A stretch of DNA of 64,000 nt from Oscillospiraceae bacterium (GCA_015068465.1 SVKM01000001.1:1552-65551); one strand, 5' to 3'. Shown: positions 5-11,663, numbered from the stretch's first letter. The notes: generated by a model from the sequence alone, not told the origin. Program-made: numbers and translations.

Positions 5-2593
5 TTATTTCTTTTTTCTGTCGTACGGCGTGCCGTCCAGCGGCAGGCTGAACCGCCGCTCACCGTCGAGCCGGAAGTAGGCGTCCGCGATGGCGGGCGC
101 GGTGGGGATCGACGTGATCTCGCCGATGCCGATGGCGCCGTTCGCCATCTTGAGGCCGGGCTTGTCGACCACGATCGCCTTGACCGGCGGCACATCCGGC
201 GCGCGGAAGAGGCCGAGCGTACCGTACTTCGCCGTCGGCCTGCAGTTGTCGTCGATCGGGTACTGCTCGGTGAGCGCGTAGCCCATCGACATCACGACGC
301 CGCCCTCGATCTGCCCCTCGCAGGAGAGCGGGTTGACCGCTTTGCCGACGTCGTGCGCGGCGACCATCTGCTTGATTCTGCCGGTTTCCTTATCCAGAAT
401 GCACATCTGCGTGGCGTAGCCGTAGGCGACGTGCGACACGGGGTTGGGCACGTCCGCGCCGAGCGGGTCGGTCGCGGCGAGGTATTCGCCGTAGAACTCC
501 TGCCCCTTGAGGTCGGCGAGCGTCCTGCCCTTGAGGGCTTCGACCAGCTTTTCGCAGGCGCGGCGCACCGCCTCGCCCGTGATGAGCGTCTGGCGCGAGC
601 CCGAGGTGTCGCCGGAGTCCGGCGCGATCCAGGTGTTGCTGCGCTCGTAGACGATGTCGCCGGGGGCGATCCCCGCGTTGGTGACGACCATCTGCGTCAG
701 CACCGTGCCGAGCCCTTGTCCGATGCAGCTCGCGCCGGAGTAGATATGTACCTTCGCGTCGTCCTCGACGATCAGCTTTGCGCGGCCCCAGTCGGGAAGC
801 CCCACGCCGACGCCCGCGTTTTTCATCGCGCAGGCGAGGCCGACGGGGTCGCCGTTTTTGACCGCCTCGTCGTAGTACGGCTTGACCGCCTCGAGCGTTT
901 CGACCAGGCCGGTTTCGGGGCCGACGATCTGGCCGTTCGGCAGCACCTGCCCGGGCCGGATGGCGTTGCGGTAGCGGATTTCCCACGGCGAAATGCCGAC
1001 CTTGTCCGCCATCATGTTCAAAAGCGTTTCGGTGGCAAAGCAGGTCTGGGTCACGCCGAAGCCGCGGAACGCGCCGGCGGGCGGGTTGTTGGTATAGTAG
1101 GCGGTGCCGTCGATTTCGAAGTTTTCATAGGCATACGGCCCCGCGGCGTGGGTGCAGGCGCGCTCCAAAACCGGGCCGCCGAGCGAGGCAAACGCGCCCG
1201 TGTCGGACACGACCTTCGCCTTGACGCCCTGAATGACGCCGTTTTCGTCGCAGCCCATCGTAAAGTCCATCCACATCGGATGGCGCTTGGGGTGGACGAG
1301 GATCGACTCCGCGCGCGAGAGCTTGACCTTGACCGGCACCCTCGCGACATAGGCGATCAGCGCCGCGTGGTGCTGCACGGACATATCCTCCTTGCCGCCG
1401 AAGCCGCCGCCGACGAGCTGGTTTTCCACGAGGCAGTGCTCGTAGTCCACGCCGAGCATCGCCGCGCACTCGTGCAGCGTCGTGTGCGCGCTCTGGTCGG
1501 TGGTAAGCAGCTTCACGCCGCCGCTTTCCAGCGGCAGCGCCACGCAGCACTCCGGCTCCAGGAACGCGTGCTCCGTCCACGGGGTCTCGAAGTGCGCGGT
1601 GACGACGTATTTGCTCTTTGCGATCGCGCCCTCCGCGTCGCCGCGGGAAACGTGCTTGTGCGCCTGTATGTTGTTCTCGTCCGTTTCAAACACCAGCGGC
1701 GCGTTCTCCGCCGCCGCTTCGACGGGGTTATGCACCGCGCTGAGCACCTCGTACTCGACCTTGACGAGCTTCTTTGCCGCCTCCAGCGTCTCCTGATCGC
1801 GCGCGCACACGAGCGCGACCGCGTCGCCGAGGTAGTGCGTGATCTCGCCGACGGGAATCAGCGTCGGCTGGTCCTTCTTGATGTGTCCGACATAATTCTT
1901 GCCGGGAATGTCCTTCGCGGTCAGCACGCACACGACGCCGGGCAGCGCCTCCGCCTCGCTTGCGTCGATCGAGAGCACGCGCGCGCGGGGATACTGGCTG
2001 CGCACGGCGCTGCCGTAGCACATGCCGTCGACATAGACGTCGTCGGGATACTTTCCGTAGCCCTGCACCTTCTCCGCCACGTCGATGCGGTGGACGCGCG
2101 AGCCGACCTGATAATCGTCCGCGCCGGCGCCGGGGATCTTCCCCTCGCGAAAGACCTTCGCCGCGAGCAGGATGCCGTCGAGGATCTTCACATAGCCCGT
2201 GCAGCGGCAGATGTTGCCGCGGATGGCAAACGCCGCCTCCTCGCGCGTCGGGTCCGGATTCTGGTCGATGAGCCCCTTGGCGCACATCACCATGCCGGGA
2301 ATGCAGAAGCCGCACTGTACCGCGCCCGCCTCGCCGAAGGCGTAGGTATAAACGTCCTTTTCCCAATCGGAAAGCCCCTCGACCGTCACGACGCTCTTGC
2401 CGTCGAGCTTGTCGGTCTGCGGGACGCACGCCTTCGTCGCCTTGCCGTCGATCAGCACGGTGCAGGTGCCGCAGGCGCCCTCGCTGCACCCGTCCTTGAC
2501 GCTCGTGAGGTGCAGCGTGTCGCGGAGATACCGCAGCAGCTTCTGATTTTTCTCGACCGTGACGCTCTTGCCGTTCACCGTAAATTGAGCCAT
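5..2593 (-). CDS. xdh: Selenium-dependent xanthine dehydrogenase-type molybdenum hydroxylase (2Fe-2S domains fused to Mo-binding domain)
   Basis: 2Fe-2S motifs GCSEGACGTCTV and QCGFC...CRCTGY; Mo-site motifs GGGFGGK, AFRGFG, GQIEGG, GIGE. Start set at ATG 2593 (MAQFTVNG) behind GAGGT. Adjacent to selD/yqeB/yqeC. Confidence 0.92.
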   Translation of the reverse strand: MAQFTVNGKSVTVEKNQKLLRYLRDTLHLTSVKDGCSEGACGTCTVLIDGKATKACVPQTDKLDGKSVVTVEGLSDWEKDVYTYAFGEAGAVQCGFCIPGMVMCAKGLIDQNPDPTREEAAFAIRGNICRCTGYVKILDGILLAAKVFREGKIPGAGADDYQVGSRVHRIDVAEKVQGYGKYPDDVYVDGMCYGSAVRSQYPRARVLSIDASEAEALPGVVCVLTAKDIPGKNYVGHIKKDQPTLIPVGEITHYLGDAVALVCARDQETLEAAKKLVKVEYEVLSAVHNPVEAAAENAPLVFETDENNIQAHKHVSRGDAEGAIAKSKYVVTAHFETPWTEHAFLEPECCVALPLESGGVKLLTTDQSAHTTLHECAAMLGVDYEHCLVENQLVGGGFGGKEDMSVQHHAALIAYVARVPVKVKLSRAESILVHPKRHPMWMDFTMGCDENGVIQGVKAKVVSDTGAFASLGGPVLERACTHAAGPYAYENFEIDGTAYYTNNPPAGAFRGFGVTQTCFATETLLNMMADKVGISPWEIRYRNAIRPGQVLPNGQIVGPETGLVETLEAVKPYYDEAVKNGDPVGLACAMKNAGVGVGLPDWGRAKLIVEDDAKVHIYSGASCIGQGLGTVLTQMVVTNAGIAPGDIVYERSNTWIAPDSGDTSGSRQTLITGEAVRRACEKLVEALKGRTLADLKGQEFYGEYLAATDPLGADVPNPVSHVAYGYATQMCILDKETGRIKQMVAAHDVGKAVNPLSCEGQIEGGVVMSMGYALTEQYPIDDNCRPTAKYGTLGLFRAPDVPPVKAIVVDKPGLKMANGAIGIGEITSIPTAPAIADAYFRLDGERRFSLPLDGTPYDRKKK

Positions 2594-4835: not shown

Positions 4836-5868
4836 GCAGGAAAATGCGCTTGCCGCCGCGGTACGGCTCCGCCGTGCCGATGCGCTGCGCCGAGGGGACG
4901 GCGCCTTGCAGCTCGGCAAGCAGCGGCTCTGCGTCCGCGGGGTCGACGGCGATGAGCAGCCCGCCCGCGGTCTGCGGGTCGTAGAGGACGTCCTGGCGGC
5001 AAAGCTCCGTGTCGCCGGGGTCGACGTACGGCTCGGCAAAGCTGCGGTTGCGGTACATGCCCTCGGGCAATATGCCGATGCGCGCCAGCTCCACCGCCTC
5101 GGGCATGAGGTCGATCGCGCCGACGTCAAGGCGCAGCTCGACGTCGCTGCCCTGCGCCATCTCGAGGCCGTGGCCCATGAGCGAAAAGCCCGTCACGTCC
5201 GTGCAGGCGTGGACGCGGTACTTGACCATCGCGTCGCGCGCGGCGCGGTTGAGCGTCGTCATCAGCTCCACCGCGCGCGCCATGCTCTCCGCGGACGCCA
5301 TGCCGACCTTGGCGGCGGTCGTCAAAACGCCGATGCCGAGCGGCTTGGTGAGCAGCAGCACGTCGCCGGGCTTCGCGCCGCTGTTTGTCAGCACCTTGTC
5401 GGGGTGGACGAAGCCGGTCACGGCGAGGCCGTATTTCGGCTCGTCGTCCAAAATGCTGTGCCCGCCGGTGATGATCGCGCCCGCCTCGTACGCCTTGTCG
5501 TACCCGCCGCGCAAGATCTCATGCACCGCCTCGGCGGGCATGTCCTTCGGCACCGCCATGATGTTGAGCGCGAGCTTCGGCTCCCCGCCCATGGCGTACA
5601 CGTCGGACAGCGCGTTCGTCGCGGCGATCTGCCCGAAGGTGTAGGGGTCGTCGTGGATGGGCGGGAAGAAATCGACGGTCTGCACGAGCGCGAGGTCGTC
5701 TGTGACCTTGTAAACGCTCGCGTCGTCGCTCTTGTCGAAGCCGACGAGCAGATTGGGGTCGCGGCGCACCTTCATGTCGCCGAGCAGCTGCGCGAGCACG
5801 CCCGCGCCGACCTTCGCGCCGCAGCCCGCGCACTTGGCGAGCTTGGTGAGCTTGACTTCATTTTCCAT
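4831..5868 (-). CDS. selD: Selenide, water dikinase (Cys-type)
   Basis: CAGCGAK (TGC codons, no UGA), DDASVY, QTVDFF, ATNALSDVYAMGG, TDVTGF, DPQTAGGLL. Confidence 0.96.
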   Translation of the reverse strand: MENEVKLTKLAKCAGCGAKVGAGVLAQLLGDMKVRRDPNLLVGFDKSDDASVYKVTDDLALVQTVDFFPPIHDDPYTFGQIAATNALSDVYAMGGEPKLALNIMAVPKDMPAEAVHEILRGGYDKAYEAGAIITGGHSILDDEPKYGLAVTGFVHPDKVLTNSGAKPGDVLLLTKPLGIGVLTTAAKVGMASAESMARAVELMTTLNRAARDAMVKYRVHACTDVTGFSLMGHGLEMAQGSDVELRLDVGAIDLMPEAVELARIGILPEGMYRNRSFAEPYVDPGDTELCRQDVLYDPQTAGGLLIAVDPADAEPLLAELQGAVPSAQRIGTAEPYRGGKRIFLR

Positions 5869-6664
5869 GGTTCATCGCCTCAAAATGCAGAATTGCTTCC
5901 AGCACGCCGCCGGCGACGGCGAGCGCCTTGTCGGAAACGAGATCGCAGTAGCTTTTTTCGCCGCGCGGGTCGACGTCGCCGGATTTCATGCCCTGCTTCA
6001 CGCTTACGCCGTCGGCGAGCAGCCCGCGCAGCACGCCGGAAATGGTCGCCCGCATCGGCGCGCCCGCGACGAAGCCGACGGTTTCTCCCGCCTCGACGCG
6101 GTCGCCGATCTTGCGCGCGCTTTCAAATACGCCGTCCGCCGGGGCGCGCAGCACGCGCTCGCCCGCAAAGCCGCCGATAAGGCCGGGAATGTTGGTGTTC
6201 GGCAGCGCCGAGCCCGTATAGCAGACGCGCCCGAGCGTGTGCCCGCGCATCGTTTCCACGACCGCGTGGCAGTCCTTCCCCGCCGTAAAGCCCGGCCCCA
6301 CGCCGACCACGATCGGCGCGTCGGCGATCGACGTGCCGAGGTTGCGCTTGGCGAGGATCGCGTCCGCCAGCGCGTGCGGCTTGAGAGATACGCGGCAGGC
6401 GCAGTCCGGGTCGACGAGCACGGGAATGACGCCCTGCGCCCAATACGCGCGCGCTTCCTCCGGGCTGCCCGCGCGCCGCGCGGTCACGTCCTCGACCGTC
6501 TGCGCGCCGTTTACGACCGCGTCGGAAAACGCGACCGTGCGGCGGATGGTCGTCGGGCGCGCGATCTCGGTCATCGCGACCGAAAAGCCCGCGCGGTGAA
6601 GCCGCAGCGCGACGCCGCTGGCAATATCGCCCGCGCCGCGGATGAGAACGATCTTTTTATCCAT
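5858..6664 (-). CDS. yqeB: Selenium-dependent molybdenum hydroxylase system protein YqeB
   Basis: IRGAGDIASGVA, TIRRTVAF, ETMRGHTLG, GDVDPRG, SDKALAVAGGVLEA; start ATG 6664 (MDKKIV). Confidence 0.92.
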   Translation of the reverse strand: MDKKIVLIRGAGDIASGVALRLHRAGFSVAMTEIARPTTIRRTVAFSDAVVNGAQTVEDVTARRAGSPEEARAYWAQGVIPVLVDPDCACRVSLKPHALADAILAKRNLGTSIADAPIVVGVGPGFTAGKDCHAVVETMRGHTLGRVCYTGSALPNTNIPGLIGGFAGERVLRAPADGVFESARKIGDRVEAGETVGFVAGAPMRATISGVLRGLLADGVSVKQGMKSGDVDPRGEKSYCDLVSDKALAVAGGVLEAILHFEAMNHGK

Positions 6665-7322
6665 TCGTATAGACTCCTTTGTGAAGGCTGCCCAGCACGA
6701 CGGGCCGGTCCAGCAGCCCGGCGAGCGCTTTCGCCCGCTCATAGGCTTCGTCGGATTCCACCTTGTTGATGTAGACGCGGTCGCCGAGGTTTTCGGCGAG
6801 GATGACCCGCGCGGCGAGCGCCGGCGTCACGGCATCGGAAACGGAAGCGCCCGCGCGCTGCGCGTACAGCTCCGGGCGGTGGCAGACGGCGGAGATCGGC
6901 TTTCCGAAGCCGTCCGCGCCGACGAGAAGCACGACGCGCTGCGCGTTTGCCGGAACGACCGGCTCGTGCGGCGCGTGCGCCTTGAGCGGCAGGCGCTTCG
7001 CGCCGTCCGCCTCGACGAGCACATAGTCCGCGAGCGCCGCCAATTCCTCAAACGACGGCGCCGGCGCGGTCAGCTTGCCGTTTTCGACGGGCGTGCCGGC
7101 GCAGACGGCGCCGTGCGCCGCGAGCGCCGCGCGTATTGCCTCCGCGCCGCCGGTGACGAGCGGGTATTGCTCCGGGACAAGAATGTGCGTGGAGGTACAG
7201 AGGATGACGCGCCCCTTTTTGCGCAGTTCCTCCGCGAGCGCATAGAGAAGCGTCGTCTTGCCGCCGCCGCCGATGAGCGCGCTCACGCCGCGCCCGATGT
7301 TCAGAACGGATGAAACCTGCAT
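6657..7322 (-). CDS. yqeC: Selenium cofactor biosynthesis protein YqeC
   Basis: GGGGKTT, VEADGAKRLPLKAHAPHEPV; start ATG 7322 overlaps the DUF3343 stop. Confidence 0.9.
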   Translation of the reverse strand: MQVSSVLNIGRGVSALIGGGGKTTLLYALAEELRKKGRVILCTSTHILVPEQYPLVTGGAEAIRAALAAHGAVCAGTPVENGKLTAPAPSFEELAALADYVLVEADGAKRLPLKAHAPHEPVVPANAQRVVLLVGADGFGKPISAVCHRPELYAQRAGASVSDAVTPALAARVILAENLGDRVYINKVESDEAYERAKALAGLLDRPVVLGSLHKGVYTNG

Positions 7323-7558
7323 CACATCACCAACTCGTAGATCCCGGCGAACTCCACCTTTTCCGCGGCGAGCGCCTCCTCCAGCCGAGGCCGGGCTTCC
7401 GCGCCGGCGCACCATGCGATGCCGCAATCGGCGGACAGCGCGCGCGGCGCGGAGATCAGCTTCCCCTCCACCCCGCGCGCGCGGCAGACCTGCTCCGTCG
7501 CCATCGCCTCCGCCGTCGTATGGAAGGTGACGACGACGCACGGCTTCTTTTCCCTCAT
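7322..7558 (-). CDS. DUF3343-type small protein associated with selenium clusters
   Basis: VVTFHTTAEAM...PRALSADCGIAW pattern; first gene of the yqeC-yqeB-selD operon. Confidence 0.8.
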   Translation of the reverse strand: MREKKPCVVVTFHTTAEAMATEQVCRARGVEGKLISAPRALSADCGIAWCAGAEARPRLEEALAAEKVEFAGIYELVM

Positions 7559-7573
7559 TGTGAACTGCCTCCG

Positions 7574-7597
7574 CGTTATTCGCCAAAAAGTATCAAG
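7574..7597. promoter_or_regulatory. ModE-box-like palindrome, copy 3 (at +1 of the DUF3343-yqeC-yqeB-selD promoter)
   Basis: CGTTATTCG-CCAAAA-AGTATCAAG. Confidence 0.6.
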
Positions 7598-8033: not shown

Positions 8034-8105
8034 CGGAAAGAAAACACCTGTGGAGCGGCGCCGGCTTTGCGCCGGAAACTGTGGACGAGGAGGCGAAGCA
8101 GCGCC

Positions 8106-8873
8106 GTGACAAACCGGGAAATGCTGGAGATTGCAATGAGGCAGTCCGCGGAGGACATCGGATGCGCCTGCGCGGATTTTACGCGCAACGAGAACGTGGT
8201 CGTTCCCTTTCGCCTCGGGGAAAACGCCCGCCGTTACTATAAGCTGCCCATCACCTGCAACCTTGTGTCGTACGGGAATAACATCGTCGCGGCGACGGCG
8301 GACGAGGTTTCCGACGTCGTGACGGCGTATATCGGGAAGTACGAGTTCTATCATTGTTTCGAAACGCCGAATCTGCACTGGCTGAACGAACGGCTCATGG
8401 AAAAAGGGCACAAGGTTTGCTTTATGGCGGAGTATTATCTTTTCGACGCAGGCAGGGCGCCGAAGCTCGCCTGCGGCTATGAAACGCGCCTCCTGGGGCC
8501 GGCGGATTTTGCGGCGCTGTACCTTCCCGAATGGAGCAACGCCCTGTGCGAGGACAGAAAGCAGCTCGACGTCCTCGGCGTGGGCGCGTATGACAACGGA
8601 AAACTGATCGGGCTCGCCGGCTGCTCCGCCGACTGTGAGGATATGTGGCAGATCGGCATAGACGTTCTGCCGGCGTACAGGCGGCAAGGGATCGCCTCCG
8701 CGCTGACCGGCGCCCTTGCGAGGGAGATCATGGCGCGCGGAAAGGTGCCGTTTTATTGTTCGGCGTGGTCGAATATCCGGTCCGTGCGCAACGCCGTGAA
8801 AAGCGGCTTTATCCCGGCGTGGGTCGAAATGACCGCAAAGCCGGCAAAGACCGTTGCGGATATCGTCGGCTGA
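8106..8873 (+). CDS. GNAT-family N-acetyltransferase
   Basis: C-terminal QIGIDVLPAYRRQGIASAL acetyl-CoA motif and NIRSVRNAVKSGF; probable GTG start at 8106. Confidence 0.85.
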   Translation: MTNREMLEIAMRQSAEDIGCACADFTRNENVVVPFRLGENARRYYKLPITCNLVSYGNNIVAATADEVSDVVTAYIGKYEFYHCFETPNLHWLNERLMEKGHKVCFMAEYYLFDAGRAPKLACGYETRLLGPADFAALYLPEWSNALCEDRKQLDVLGVGAYDNGKLIGLAGCSADCEDMWQIGIDVLPAYRRQGIASALTGALAREIMARGKVPFYCSAWSNIRSVRNAVKSGFIPAWVEMTAKPAKTVADIVG

Positions 8874-9068: not shown

Positions 9069-10106
9069 TCAGCTCTCCCGTCCCTTTCCCCGCAGGCGCC
9101 TCGCCTTTGCGACGCCCTTGCTCCACTCGCGCTTTCGGCGCAGCAGGTCTTCGTTGTCCCGCGATTCGTCGCGCAGCTTGCGATAGCTTTCCCAGCGCGA
9201 CGCGTCCAGCTCGCCCGCGGCGATCGCCGCGCGGATGGCGCAGCCGGGCTCGCGCTCGTGGCTGCAATCGGAGAAGCGGCATTTCCCCAGCAGCGCCTCT
9301 ACGTCCGCGAAAGCGCTCTCCAGCCCGTCCGAGGACTCCGCCATGCCGAGCTCGCGCATGCCCGGGGTGTCGATGACCAGCACGCCGCTTTGCAAACGGA
9401 CGAGCTGGCGGTGGGTCGTGGTATGGCGGCCCTTGCCGTCGAGTTCGCGGATGCCGCCGGTCGCCATGACCTCCTCCCCGGCAAGCGCGTTGACCAGACT
9501 GGACTTGCCCACGCCGGAGGAGCCGAGAAACACCAGCGTCTTCCCCGGCTGCAGATAGGGGGCGAGCCGCTCCAGCCCCTCGCCGGTCTGCGCGCTGACC
9601 GCGTGCGCGGCGACCCCGGGCGCGACGCGCTCCGCCTGCGCGAGAAAGGCGGCGCGGTCGTCCGTCAGATCCGCCTTGGTCAGCACGATCACGGGCTGCG
9701 CGCCGGACTGCCACGCGAGCGTGAGATAGCGCTCAAGGCGCCGGAGATTGAAGTTTTGGTTCATCGACTGCAGGAGGAAGACGCAGTCGAAATTCGCGGC
9801 GATCGCCTGCTCCTTCACGGTCGGTCCGCTCGCGCGGCGGGCGAAGAAGGATCGGCGCGGCAGGGTGCGCAGGATCTGGCCGTCCCCGTTTTCGACCTCG
9901 CGCACCGTCACATAGTCCCCCACCGTGGGGAAGAGCTCTTCGCCCGCGTAGTACGCGCCCGTTTTCAGCCGGGCGTAGGAAAAGCCGCTCGGGCTGACGA
10001 TCTCATAGCGTTCCTTGTGCTGCGCGGTGATCCGCGCCGGAACGCCCGCAAGCCCCTCCGTGTCCGGAACGGGGCCAAAGTCGTTTATCGTAAGATTTTC
10101 GATCAA
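9069..10106 (-). CDS. rsgA: Ribosome small subunit-dependent GTPase A (RsgA) homologue
   Basis: PTVGDYV, TKAD, GSSGVGKSSL, GRHTTT, DTPGMRE, CRFSDCSH.EPGC zinc finger; TTG start behind GGGAGG. Confidence 0.93.
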   Translation of the reverse strand: MIENLTINDFGPVPDTEGLAGVPARITAQHKERYEIVSPSGFSYARLKTGAYYAGEELFPTVGDYVTVREVENGDGQILRTLPRRSFFARRASGPTVKEQAIAANFDCVFLLQSMNQNFNLRRLERYLTLAWQSGAQPVIVLTKADLTDDRAAFLAQAERVAPGVAAHAVSAQTGEGLERLAPYLQPGKTLVFLGSSGVGKSSLVNALAGEEVMATGGIRELDGKGRHTTTHRQLVRLQSGVLVIDTPGMRELGMAESSDGLESAFADVEALLGKCRFSDCSHEREPGCAIRAAIAAGELDASRWESYRKLRDESRDNEDLLRRKREWSKGVAKARRLRGKGRES

Positions 10107-10161
10107 GGTATGATACCTCCCATTTAAGCTTGTGGTGGAAGCGGATAAAAACAGTCATCAT
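10003..10161 (-). other. Candidate leader ORF 2 (MMTVFIRFHHKLKWEV..., 52 aa) overlapping the rsgA RBS and start out of frame
   Basis: Strong RBS AAAGGAG upstream of tandem ATGs at 10161 and 10158. Confidence 0.5.
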
Positions 10162-10198
10162 ACAACACTCCTTTCGTTTGCCGCCGGCCGGAAAAGGG

Positions 10199-10249
10199 TA
10201 CAAAAATACCGCAGACAAGCAGCTCTCGTCATGGCTGCCTCTGCGGTAT
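10199..10249 (-). terminator. Intrinsic terminator inside the rsgA 5' leader (attenuator)
   Basis: ATACCGCAGA...TCTGCGGTAT stem with inner GGCAGC/GCTGCT pairing, followed by TTTTGT. Confidence 0.7.
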
Positions 10250-10331
10250 CCATATATCCGAAAGATACTTTCCTGCGCGCAGAAAAGCAAACGGGGACAA
10301 GCGCCCCGGAAAGCCCTGCGCCGATATTCAC

Positions 10332-10361
10332 TTAGCCGGTGACGACCTCGCAGACAGACAT
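10332..10361 (-). other. Candidate leader peptide 1 (MSVCEVVTG)
   Basis: 9 codons plus TAA behind RBS GAAAGGAGA, about 40 nt after the predicted +1. Confidence 0.55.
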
Positions 10362-10409
10362 ACTTTGTATCTCCTTTCCGATCCGCCTTCGCGGATCCTT
10401 GCTGACCTA

Positions 10410-10438
10410 ACTGTAGCACCGAAGGCGCGCGCTGTCAA
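10410..10438 (-). promoter_or_regulatory. sigma70 promoter for the rsgA leader
   Basis: TTGACA-17-TACAGT. Confidence 0.7.
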
Positions 10439-10553
10439 TCTGTTTTTGCGGCCGCCGTTTTGCGCTGGACGCTGCGCGCGGAAGGTGCTATAATAATTTT
10501 GCTGTGTCGATATTTGCGCAATACGCTATGGTCCGAAAACAGGAGGGCCCGAT

Positions 10554-11663
10554 ATGAAGGCAAAAAAATGTTTCGCGCTGCTGCTCGCCGCGCTGTCGCT
10601 CCTCGGCGTTGTTCTCGCGGGATTTGGCGCGGGCGGCGCGGCGTCCGCGTCCGGCTCCGGCAAGTATTCGGAGGGCGTGAACGCAAGATGCGAGATCACC
10701 GGCTATCACCGCTATCAGGGTGAAAACAGCGGCTGCTTTCTCTCCAAAGGGGACAAGGTCGCCGTGATCTCGCCGTCCGAGCTGCCGACGCGCAAGCGGG
10801 TCGACGCGACGGTCAACGGCCTCAGGGCATGGGGCTTCGTTCCGGTGACGGGGAAATATGTCTGTCCGCAGACGCGCACGCTCGACGAGCTGATCGCGGA
10901 TCTCACCTGGGCGCTGAACGATCCCGCGATCAAGGCGGTCTTTTGCGTGAGAGGCGGCTCCGGGGCGTCGGACGTGATGGACGCGGTCGCGCTGGAGCTG
11001 ATCCGAAACGCGAACAAGCCGATCATCGGCTACAGCGACATCACGGTCTACCATTCCGCCTGGGCAGCGGCAGGCGTCCCGTCGATCCACGCCGGCATGA
11101 GCGATGCGTTCACCTATATCACCGACGCCTGCGCGAAGGCGGAGCGCCGCATGATGACGGGCGATATACCCTCGTACCGCTGCACGGCGAATACGCCGTG
11201 CGTCAACGGCGAGGCAACGGGCGTCCTGCTCGGCGGCAACCTGTCCACCTTCGTTTCGGTGCTCGGAACGGAATATGACTGCACCCGGACGGACCAGCCG
11301 TACATCCTCTTTTTTGAGGACGTCGACGACAACATGCGGGAGATCCACCGCTACCTTACGATCCTGAAGCATCTGGGCGTTCTGGACCGGGCGTCCGGGA
11401 TCGTCTTCGGCGAATGGACGGACCTTCCGGTGGACGGTGAAGGCAACTTCGGCGCGGTGCGCGGCGGAACATTCCAGTCGGTGGCGGACATGATCTACCG
11501 GGAGTTCCTCGTCGACCCGAGCATTCCCGTGGCATTCGACTTTCCCGCCGGGCACGCCAGGGTCAACTACCCGCTGCTCATGGGCGAAACGGTCAAGCTC
11601 AGCGTTTCCGACGGCGTTTACACGCTGGAGTGGGTCGAGGGAGCGAAGAGCGCGGGCGACTGA
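10554..11663 (+). CDS. Secreted LD-carboxypeptidase (peptidase S66/MccF family)
   Basis: Signal peptide; VAVISPS, VRGGSG, IGYSDIT (Ser), GGNLS, FFEDV (Glu), AGH (His). Confidence 0.9.
   Translation: MKAKKCFALLLAALSLLGVVLAGFGAGGAASASGSGKYSEGVNARCEITGYHRYQGENSGCFLSKGDKVAVISPSELPTRKRVDATVNGLRAWGFVPVTGKYVCPQTRTLDELIADLTWALNDPAIKAVFCVRGGSGASDVMDAVALELIRNANKPIIGYSDITVYHSAWAAAGVPSIHAGMSDAFTYITDACAKAERRMMTGDIPSYRCTANTPCVNGEATGVLLGGNLSTFVSVLGTEYDCTRTDQPYILFFEDVDDNMREIHRYLTILKHLGVLDRASGIVFGEWTDLPVDGEGNFGAVRGGTFQSVADMIYREFLVDPSIPVAFDFPAGHARVNYPLLMGETVKLSVSDGVYTLEWVEGAKSAGD

Follow-up and report, generated by a model that had tools for sequence, protein, structure and literature searches.

Four papers describe the genes bmrCD, vmlR, msrD and hflXr as regulated by a ribosome-stalling leader mechanism (PMC4191407, PMC9226507, PMC10314930, PMC6310831). 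We analysed a leader of 330 nt that stands before a gene for the GTPase RsgA in a window of 64,000 nt from an Oscillospiraceae bacterium (GCA_015068465.1, SVKM01000001.1:1552-65551). The window is the whole stretch of DNA that was analysed, all coordinates count from its first letter, and all features of the leader and of rsgA are on the minus strand. Our best explanation, to which we give a probability of roughly 0.68, is that this leader belongs to an uncatalogued family of ribosome-dependent leader-peptide transcription attenuators in Clostridia, wired as proposed below.

The closest described systems are the attenuators of ermC/ermB, cat, B. subtilis bmrB-bmrCD, vmlR, Listeria lmo0919 and hflXr, and streptococcal msrD. 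Like them, the rsgA leader has a short upstream open reading frame (uORF) led by a Shine-Dalgarno (SD) sequence, a terminator before the gene and mutually exclusive pairings, and the genes behind it include a ribosome-associated GTPase and exporters. Unlike them, it has no sequence or Rfam relationship to any of the others, it has an extra long-range helix between two segments called X and Z here, and it has a second uORF in rsgA loci. What would be unusual about it is that the competing strand appears to be the uORF's own initiation region, the SD and spacer rather than the coding region, acting as an anti-antiterminator; that the antiterminator seems to enter the terminator via its loop, taking the loop and upper 3' arm and not the 5' arm; and that one cis-acting leader family is found before at least seven gene classes.

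A second comparison is with the WblC/WhiB7 regulon of Streptomyces and mycobacteria. Of the two RsgA/EngC paralogues in Streptomyces coelicolor (SCO6149 and SCO5211), WblC/WhiB7 activates one, SCO6149, together with tetM, GNAT genes, ABC transporters and hflX, and the regulon is induced by translation-targeting antibiotics (PMC7157823); a further paper places whiB7 itself under a uORF attenuator (PMC10274678). By analogy, this regulon is a precedent for an antibiotic-induced RsgA paralogue. The likeness is striking and lies in the gene classes, namely a TetM-like GTPase, GNATs, ABC transporters, hydrolases and one RsgA paralogue. The phylum is different, and whereas in Streptomyces one attenuator controls a trans-acting factor, here each gene would have its own attenuator in cis.

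The uORF-class attenuators of trp, his and ilvB share the same general wiring of uORF, antiterminator and terminator. They differ from the rsgA leader in that its first uORF has no run of regulatory codons, with only Glu-Val conserved, and the downstream genes are non-biosynthetic, which is not what an amino-acid-sensing attenuator would show. For tet(M) of Tn916, Su et al. are said to have reported transcription attenuation via a leader peptide in 1992. In the present family four loci carry a Tet(O)/(M)-like gene, so that there too a Tet protection GTPase stands behind a short leader ORF and a terminator. The leader peptide here is however shorter and unrelated, the leaders have no similarity to the plasmid-borne sequences that were searched, and the GTPase scores 652.9 bits on NF012153 (tet_protect), under the cut-off of 775 bits.

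The leader, its first open reading frame and its cargo

Relatives were collected with a one-genome-per-species scan using the RsgA protein, which gave 33 loci, mostly in metagenome-assembled genomes (MAGs) of Faecousia, Oscillospiraceae and Ruminococcaceae. By blastn and MAFFT the leader is kept in about 18 of the 33, from the -35 box to just past the terminator. Its terminator region shows 80-86% identity, against only 65-72% for the RsgA proteins, and family-wide the leader is conserved though RsgA identity is 55-80%. An unbiased metagenome scan with a 23-nt pattern from the end of the terminator added 120 loci, and a hidden Markov model of the leader (nhmmer) matched the full element in about 100 loci. 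The leader did not arise by chance: from the -35 box to shortly beyond the terminator it is kept in about 90 loci of Oscillospiraceae and other Clostridia, and the family is widespread in those of the gut and rumen. An earlier reading of this DNA, made from its letters alone and called the sequence-only reading here, had proposed a uORF attenuator upstream of rsgA and pointed to covariance analysis across Clostridia; when this was done, the leader proved to be conserved in these roughly 90 loci, with helices that covary. Every sequence feature which that reading listed (promoter, hairpin, SDs, uORFs, terminator and rsgA) is present in the window at its place, and its attenuator layout stands, with uORF1, terminator and alternative pairings all conserved, though the wiring differs from the one it proposed.

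Searches of the catalogues gave little. Rfam returned no relevant match in the window at 9500-11000 with E up to 10, and no match to the leader at the gathering score in six relatives. Neither the window leader nor the Tet-associated one had a DNA match in the plasmid collection, and the literature yielded no paper on an RsgA leader peptide and nothing on the Listeria paralogue under the tag lmo1332. The closest genome homologue of the protein (77% identical; L001:2620-3010, Oscillospiraceae RGIG6731) has no leader and follows an upstream ORF after a short spacer.

The leader has three of the features by which an attenuator is recognised: a conserved short ORF led by an SD, an intrinsic terminator before the gene, and an antiterminator that is mutually exclusive with the terminator. 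The short ORF, uORF1, runs from an ATG at 10361 to a TAA at 10332 (10332-10361) and encodes MSVCEVVTG in nine codons plus TAA. Its initiation region (10362-10379) consists of the SD GGAAAGGAG at 10379-10371 and the spacer, and is the proposed anti-antiterminator strand. The strong ribosome-binding site (RBS) and nine-residue uORF of the sequence-only reading are thus found at 10379-10332, and relatives keep them as an ORF. Across 70 unique leaders uORF1 has a length of 9-10 codons in 50, the ATG start and the TAA stop are each found in 61, and in the family it is preceded by GAAAGGAG at a spacing of 7-9 nt. Variants of 12-19 codons are N-terminal extensions, in frame and with the stop shared.

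The peptides share a C-terminal motif, [R/Y]-E-V-x-x-x-stop, and its codons say something about what is selected. Position -4 is Val in 54 of the 70 leaders, written as GTC (27), GTG (10), GTA (9) or GTT (8), and the third position of this codon carries 0.21 bits, against 1.3-1.9 bits in the preceding five bases. The use of all four codons and the low third-position information suggest selection on the amino acid. At position -5 the codon is GAG in 52 and AAG in 6 and is never GAA, AT-rich members included, which suggests that the nucleotides RAGGU are constrained as well; RAGGU lies 7 nt before the last sense codon, and this is the spacing between an SD and a P-site codon. Immediately after the stop, seven bases (CUGAAUA) show almost no variation. 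Judged by these patterns of substitution, uORF1 is a real, constrained ORF. The K/R-x-K/R motif is absent from the uORF1 peptides.

The leader element always lies directly upstream of a gene in the same orientation, and the gene varies. Among 93 loci the first gene downstream is an RsgA paralogue in 65, a count in which the genome-derived loci are biased to RsgA by the search route and the metagenome loci are not. It is a GNAT, or a fusion of GNAT, beta-lactamase-fold and TetR_C domains, in 16; a GTPase like the Tet ribosomal-protection proteins in 4; an ABC exporter pair in 3; an alpha/beta hydrolase in 2, followed in one of them (L144) by a beta-lactamase-fold protein; a P-loop kinase-like protein followed by an ABC exporter in 1; and an APH-family phosphotransferase in 1. 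The GNAT fusions are also described as GNAT-serine-hydrolase fusions, and Pfam and NCBIfam back the non-Tet assignments. The Tet-like GTPase scores 429 bits against TetO and about 245 bits against EF-G. By its composition, this cargo fits the gene set that would be expected of an antibiotic-responsive module.

Because the same leader stands before Tet-like, GNAT, exporter, kinase and hydrolase genes, the signal is most likely a ribosome-targeting compound, and the RsgA copy in the window is probably induced by translation stress or antibiotics. No result points specifically to macrolides.

Alternative RNA structures and the proposed switch

Helices were sought with a column-pair scan, with pair counts on an alignment of 49 sequences and with cognate-versus-swapped duplex tests, and the three methods agree. 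The helices P1, P2 and P3, the terminator and the antiterminator all exceed shuffled and slid controls. None of 500 shuffles attained the pairing seen in the three structures tested, and sliding the 3' partners lowered it from 86-87% to 35-57%.

The structure that carries the argument is the antiterminator. Its 5' strand (10250-10270) consists of AAGUAUCUUUCG at 10270-10259 and AUGG at 10253-10250, with a CUUUC core that resembles the 16S anti-SD. A helix of 12 nt, AAGUAnCUUUCG:CGAGAGCUGCUU, with its 3' strand at 10228-10217, is 87% paired in the relatives, or about 93% without one constant mismatch. Within it CUUUCG:CGAGAG, whose 3' side is in the terminator loop, is 97.6% paired with changes from G-C to A-U, and the inner helix AUGG:CCAU alternates between A-U (16 sequences) and G-C (12 sequences). 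The whole antiterminator is 85-87% paired, with compensatory changes, and the minimum-free-energy (MFE) fold of the window at 10272-10217 is exactly this hairpin, at -15.6 kcal/mol.

The intrinsic terminator (10202-10247), which the sequence-only reading had placed between uORF1 and rsgA, is there and is conserved. It has a stem at 10247-10208, followed by UAUUUUUG, with the U-run at 10206-10202. Its lower stem (ACCGCAG/CUGCGGU) and upper stem (GCAGC/GCUGC) are 91-97% paired in the relatives, and its fold of -24.4 kcal/mol (z = -4.73) was matched in stability by none of 200 shuffles. The 3' strand of the antiterminator, CCAU at 10234-10231 and CGAGAGCUGCUU at 10228-10217, sits in the terminator's loop and upper 3' arm, with only 2 nt between it and the lower 3' arm. 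The two structures are therefore read as mutually exclusive. An H-type pseudoknot, in which CUUUCG would pair with the terminator loop alongside the full terminator, was considered and set aside as sterically implausible by reasoning without computation, since the two 3' strands lack a linker and a loop of 11 nt would need to bridge about 20 stacked layers.

What competes with the antiterminator 5' strand seems to be the uORF1 initiation region. In the window GGAGAUAC (10374-10367) pairs with GUAUCUUU (10268-10261), a duplex of -12.0 kcal/mol. Of the upstream sequences, the SD and spacer of uORF1 form the best duplex with the antiterminator 5' strand in about 29 of 48 leaders in one comparison and in 31 of 72 in another. 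The spacer and its partner also change together, as GAUAC/GUAUC in the window, UUUCUGAU/GUCAGAGG in L012 and ACAGGAGC/GUUCCUG in L045, and cognate partners outscore swapped ones, with p = 0.0004 when the whole region is used and 0.0006 when the spacer is taken by itself. L010 has this pairing as its MFE fold. Other pairs gave non-significant swap tests (p = 0.11-0.74) and were rejected: the uORF1 3' half with the antiterminator 5' strand, uORF1 with X, uORF1 with the terminator 3' arm, and segment Y with the terminator 3' arm.

On these grounds the best reading of the wiring is that the initiation region acts as an anti-antiterminator. When uORF1 is translated and quickly vacated, its initiation region would pair with the antiterminator 5' strand, the terminator would form and transcription would stop near 10202. 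A ribosome that lingers on uORF1, which is one ribosome footprint long, would cover the initiation region and leave the antiterminator 5' strand free; such a ribosome could be stalled early by a translation inhibitor, or be queued at the start codon behind another ribosome held at the stop. The free strand would then capture the emerging CCAU...CGAGAG and zip into GCUGCUU before the lower stem of the terminator closes, and with the antiterminator formed RNA polymerase would read through into rsgA.

Several observations weigh against this wiring. The distance from GAGG is constant to the uORF1 stop and not to its start, a sign of some event at the stop codon, for which the model accounts only in part. 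The SD half of the initiation-region pairing is invariant and so uninformative, and the spacer half aligns poorly, with about 60% paired in the 49-sequence alignment. Composition-matched controls of the swap test gave p = 0.057-0.66, some of them borderline (0.057-0.068), so some lineage effect is present. In the lineage whose uORF1 is long (L013, L015, L017, L094), other partners pair better than the initiation region. In the window itself, the MFE fold pairs the uORF1 SD with a lineage-specific CUUUCC at 10311-10306 and puts the antiterminator 5' strand in a local hairpin. The terminator (-24.4 kcal/mol) is stronger than the antiterminator (-15.6 kcal/mol), and when a ribosome at the stop codon was simulated by masking, the MFE folds kept the terminator. 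From this stability and this masking result it follows that the switch must be kinetic, that is, co-transcriptional. The RNA data consist of assembled contigs whose depth is flat, and these cannot resolve a 3' end near 10202.

Upstream and downstream of uORF1 there are further helices. The GATCCGC hairpin named in the sequence-only reading is P1 (10380-10397), the 5'-terminal hairpin GAUCCGC-GAAG-GCGGAUC, which abuts the uORF1 SD. In the 49 sequences all six of its pairs change on both sides (for instance U-A in 21 and C-G in 16; swap p = 0.0005), so covariation speaks for it. Directly after the uORF1 stop comes segment X (10315-10331; consensus CUGAAUAUGGGCGC), which pairs with segment Y and, in most relatives, also with Z. 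Y (10277-10282, CUGCGC) is the 3' strand of P2, in which GGCGC of X pairs with GCGCC of Y around P3; P2 is 94% paired, with changes from G-C to A-U. P3, with its U-rich run, lies at 10282-10308 (CGGGG...CCCCG at 10308-10292, U-rich at 10291-10282). It went unmentioned in the sequence-only reading and was scored in the terminator scan. It is 88% paired, and four of its five pairs change on both sides. P3 resembles a terminator and could serve for pausing or as a first terminator. A third ORF from an AUG inside X (AUAUGGGCGC) was rejected, as it is absent in the window and in L027.

Some relatives carry additional segments in this part of the leader. In L033:1650-2250 (CAZAOL010000069.1) there is an insertion of about 150 nt between P3 and Y, with inverted ends GTCATTGTCATTAAG...CTTAATGACATTGC and a duplicated CCTGATTTGGT, and it looks like a miniature inverted-repeat transposable element. 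In a lower-GC branch (L044, L092, L090, L130, L084, L109, L052, L135, L046), additional sequence separates the antiterminator 5' strand from the terminator. It includes a second copy of ACUUUCGG and a hairpin (GCACAC/GUGUGU) that has a U-run and is possibly one more terminator. At the same place the Tet-like loci are longer by about another 100 nt. An unrelated ZMP/ZTP riboswitch (318-402, minus strand; 58.2 bits, cut-off 39) precedes the leader of L010 by about 2.3 kb.

Rival readings and the second open reading frame

The rival that survives best centres sensing on the stop codon. With GAGGU paired to the anti-SD, a ribosome halted at the end of uORF1 would cover X and block P2 and X:Z, leaving Z free for the RBS downstream, and the output would be mainly translational, or would run via P2/P3 as a first terminator, and not via the initiation region. 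This is a possible account, which we doubt. It would explain why the distance from GAGG to the stop is constant even in the long uORF1 variants, why the bases after the stop hardly vary, and why a U-run follows P2/P3. It also makes use of the two supported partners of X. One is Y; the other is Z, which lies just after the U-run (10188-10201; consensus GCGCCCAUUUUCAG, here GUACCCUUUUCCGG). X:Z is 81-90% paired over 16 positions, with one constant U-U mismatch and some compensatory changes (swap p = 0.0005), and in rsgA loci Z is complementary to the RBS, with a perfect 10-nt match to CUGAAAAUGG in several loci (swap p = 0.0016). A second, translational tier, in which Z pairs with X, with the rsgA RBS or with the uORF2 SD, is possible. 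The stop-codon account, however, leaves the conserved antiterminator that overlaps the terminator unexplained. It also has the wrong outcome, as covering X would close the rsgA RBS, the opposite of induction. There is no obvious X'-like element before the non-rsgA genes, and in the window X:Z is degenerate and Z folds onto the uORF2 SD.

The second uORF bears on the next rival. uORF2 occupies 10003-10175 including its SD (GAAAGGAG at 10175-10168); it starts with an ATG at 10161, has 52 codons and ends at 10003 within rsgA, so that it overlaps the rsgA SD (10121-10116) and the TTG start at 10106. It is found in 24 of 34 unique rsgA loci and is absent before the other gene classes. What is conserved is its start region (AAAGGAGUGAUG-N-AUG; AAAGGA[G/U]GAUG-N-AUG), which is close to a full complement of the 16S 3' tail, and not its peptide: the 24 uORFs are in frame 1 (13), frame 2 (9) or frame 0 (2), and the peptides differ. 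Of the two-tier layout in the sequence-only reading, the start region of the second tier therefore stands, at these 24 loci and in distant Firmicutes, while the peptide and frame vary. Coupling of uORF2 to rsgA through a UUGA overlap was rejected. The overlap occurs in 11 of 24 loci, which is expected of any frame-1 ORF because rsgA starts with TTGA, and the frames are mixed.

The same start motif, there as GGA[G/A/U]UGAUG-N-AUG and belonging to a uORF, stands before the rsgA paralogues of Listeria monocytogenes (L160:2820-2945), Brevibacillus marinus (on a plasmid, L159:2760-2930), Bacillus sp. N5-665 (L161:1290-1420) and Peptoclostridium acidaminophilum (L162:1290-1420). These four have no uORF1 leader, and nhmmer found none before the Brevibacillus and Listeria paralogues. 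This suggests that uORF2 is old in the RsgA subfamily and that the uORF1 attenuator joined it as an additional upstream module. The stop codon of the Listeria uORF is enclosed in a 12-bp hairpin immediately before the rsgA SD.

With such start sites, the leader could be thought to sense the supply of competent 30S subunits, in the form of mature 16S 3' ends, instead of an antibiotic, with RsgA feeding back on its own substrate. The ACUUUC switch strand would mimic the anti-SD, and the terminator loop GAGAG/GGGAG would mimic an SD. The unusually long SDs of uORF1 (GGAAAGGAG) and uORF2 (GAAAGGAGUGAU) complement the 16S 3' tail almost perfectly, CUUUC and GAGAG both persist in the relatives, and the uORF2 motif is kept in the distant Firmicutes that lack uORF1. 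We consider this reading unlikely, because the uORF1 leader also stands before GNAT, hydrolase, exporter, kinase and Tet-like genes with no role in 30S assembly, and because under the proposed wiring less initiation would give more termination, which is the wrong sign for a response to 30S shortage.

The wiring of the sequence-only reading took the pairing of the uORF1 start with the terminator 5' arm as the antiterminator, so that the position of the ribosome would decide directly, and it took a K-x-K motif in uORF2 for a macrolide stall. The complementarity exists: within the window's leader nothing pairs better with the terminator 5' arm than the uORF1 start, at -17.7 kcal/mol, a value equalled by 4.4% of shuffles. 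It does not extend to the relatives, where cognate pairs give -10.71 against -10.78 kcal/mol for non-cognate ones (swap p = 0.62), covariation is absent, and the best upstream partner of the 5' arm is scattered, with the uORF1 start taking that place in only about 4-6 of 72 leaders. The KLK motif is not conserved: it is absent from the relatives, and the frames and peptides of uORF2 differ among 24 of them; it is a translation of the conserved nucleotides of the rsgA RBS. A further pairing in that reading, of CUUCCA in uORF2 with UGGGAG at the rsgA SD, can form in the window and is at chance level, since 61% of shuffles do as well. We therefore regard this wiring as quite improbable, and prefer the one in which the initiation region competes for the antiterminator.

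A ligand-binding riboswitch would treat the region from AAGUAACUUUCG to the terminator as an aptamer for a small molecule, possibly an antibiotic, with uORF1 incidental. Such an element would account for primary-sequence conservation of about 90% where the proteins are 55-80% identical, and for conserved unpaired stretches. The conservation is, however, explained by strands that each have two alternative partners, and uORF1 is conserved in its SD, start, frame, stop and Val codon pattern. There is no multi-helix junction typical of aptamers and no Rfam match, and a riboswitch is very unlikely. Least probable of all is that the terminated leader of about 200 nt is itself a trans-acting product, a small RNA or an mRNA for the 9-aa peptide, with rsgA read-through incidental: leader contigs are deeper than the gene body in some metatranscriptomes, but contig depth is a poor measure of abundance, the deep leader contigs also pass the terminator, and the element is always directly upstream of a co-oriented gene.

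The RsgA copy, its transcripts and its neighbours

The gene behind the leader (9069-10106, or 9069-10121 with its SD GGGAGG at 10121-10116) starts with the TTG at 10106 and encodes 345 amino acids. Its product scores 169.8 bits on TIGR00157 (cut-off 100) and 177.6 on PF03193 (E = 2.5e-52, cut-off 30), and the translation has the GTPase motifs G4 (TKAD; LTKADL), G1 (GSSGVGKS) and G3 (DTPG) in the permuted order G4-G1-G3, followed by the C-terminal zinc motif CxxxxCxHxxxxxC (CRFSDCSHEREPGC). Its best solved relatives are the RsgA proteins of Pseudomonas, E. coli and B. subtilis. The gene encodes a true RsgA.

It is like canonical RsgA (YjeQ of E. coli, YloQ/CpgA of B. subtilis) in its domain set and motifs and in scoring above the TIGR00157 cut-off. 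It is unlike canonical RsgA in falling well under the equivalog cut-offs PRK12288 and PRK12289, in lying outside any conserved operon, with neighbours that differ per species, in being preceded by regulatory uORFs, and in grouping with a family of second copies, which complete genomes of Listeria and Bacillus have in addition to another RsgA. In the complete chromosome of L. monocytogenes and in Bacillus sp. N5-665 there are two RsgA-like places each, the closer of which is 46-47% identical to the window protein. In Brevibacillus marinus the paralogue is on a plasmid. One MAG bin, CAMOLY01, has two cassettes of leader and rsgA (L005, L012), with proteins 79% identical and uORF1 peptides MTVCEVRYG and MTVREVRYG, and these reflect either a real duplication or a bin made up of mixed strains. 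The genes flanking the window cassette were found beside the cassette in no other species. The two-copy Listeria and Bacillus genomes, the plasmid copy, the two-copy bin and the absent synteny together support, by comparison of sequences, the reading of rsgA here as an accessory second copy. The window's 64 kb contain no second rsgA, and the name of paralogue given in the sequence-only reading is apt for membership of the second-copy family and unproven for the window genome.

As to function, this RsgA copy may be an inducible factor on the 30S subunit, in rescue or protection. A wider proposal, which we put forward tentatively and hold to be well short of even odds, is that the paralogue is an inducible 30S protection or rescue GTPase, that the cis leader marks a translation-stress resistome of gut and rumen Clostridia, and that uORF2 tunes RsgA translation to mature 16S 3' ends. 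It could be called 'RsgA-r' by analogy with HflXr and Tet(M), and the resistome would be a cis-encoded counterpart of the actinobacterial WhiB7 regulon. If the attenuator model holds, a single RNA leader would flag inducible genes in abundant, mostly uncultured Clostridia of the livestock and human gut, and could lead to candidate resistance genes missing from databases. A second RsgA is its commonest cargo, and a dedicated GTPase acting on the 30S subunit may help ribosomes against small-subunit inhibitors, an idea for which there is one transcriptomic hint so far (S. coelicolor SCO6149).

The promoter that the sequence-only reading placed about 300 nt before rsgA is found as described. The promoter scan gave a sigma-70-type promoter at 10410-10438, with a -35 box TTGACA (10438-10433), a 17-nt spacer and a -10 box TACAGT (10415-10410). 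The -10 box is extended (TGcTACAGT at 10418-10410, with the TG at 10418-10417), and 10 of 12 consensus positions match. The scan found 2 promoter-like sites in the region against 0.4 expected, and the leader alignment shows both boxes kept in relatives. Transcription likely starts near A10403. In ten metatranscriptomes that carry the leader, contigs end at 10393, 10391, 10387 or lower, and none of the ten RNA runs has a contig over 10394-10470, a stretch that DNA assemblies do span. The 5' ends of the RNA contigs fit a start a few bases 3' of the -10 box.

One RNA contig covers 8923-10393, and others connect the leader with rsgA through the terminator. These continuous contigs indicate that read-through transcripts exist in vivo. 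A contig from run X29 connects 10206 to 10258 and omits exactly 10207-10257, the terminator hairpin, which is probably a skip of reverse transcription or assembly over a stable structure. Depth is higher in the leader than in the gene body in X25 (14.5 against 6.35) and X30 (6.8 against about 2.5), and X27 has the leader only. We rejected contig depth as a measure of termination, as depth and contig ends cannot establish it.

Around the cassette, a divergent promoter on the plus strand (10466-10494; TGGACG, 17 nt, TATAAT with a TG) precedes an LD-carboxypeptidase (S66) gene (10554-11663, plus strand), whose RNA contigs start at about 10511-10565. A 268-amino-acid GNAT acetyltransferase (8067-8873, plus strand) is convergent with rsgA and outside the control of the leader; it has a weak match to the kasugamycin acetyltransferase AAC(2')-IIb, at 21.7 bits and far under the cut-off. 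In the region 5549-7586, gene calls from L034 give a Se_S_carrier protein (PF11823) and a YqeC-family protein (PF19842), which suggests that a selenium-related cluster adjoins the cassette.

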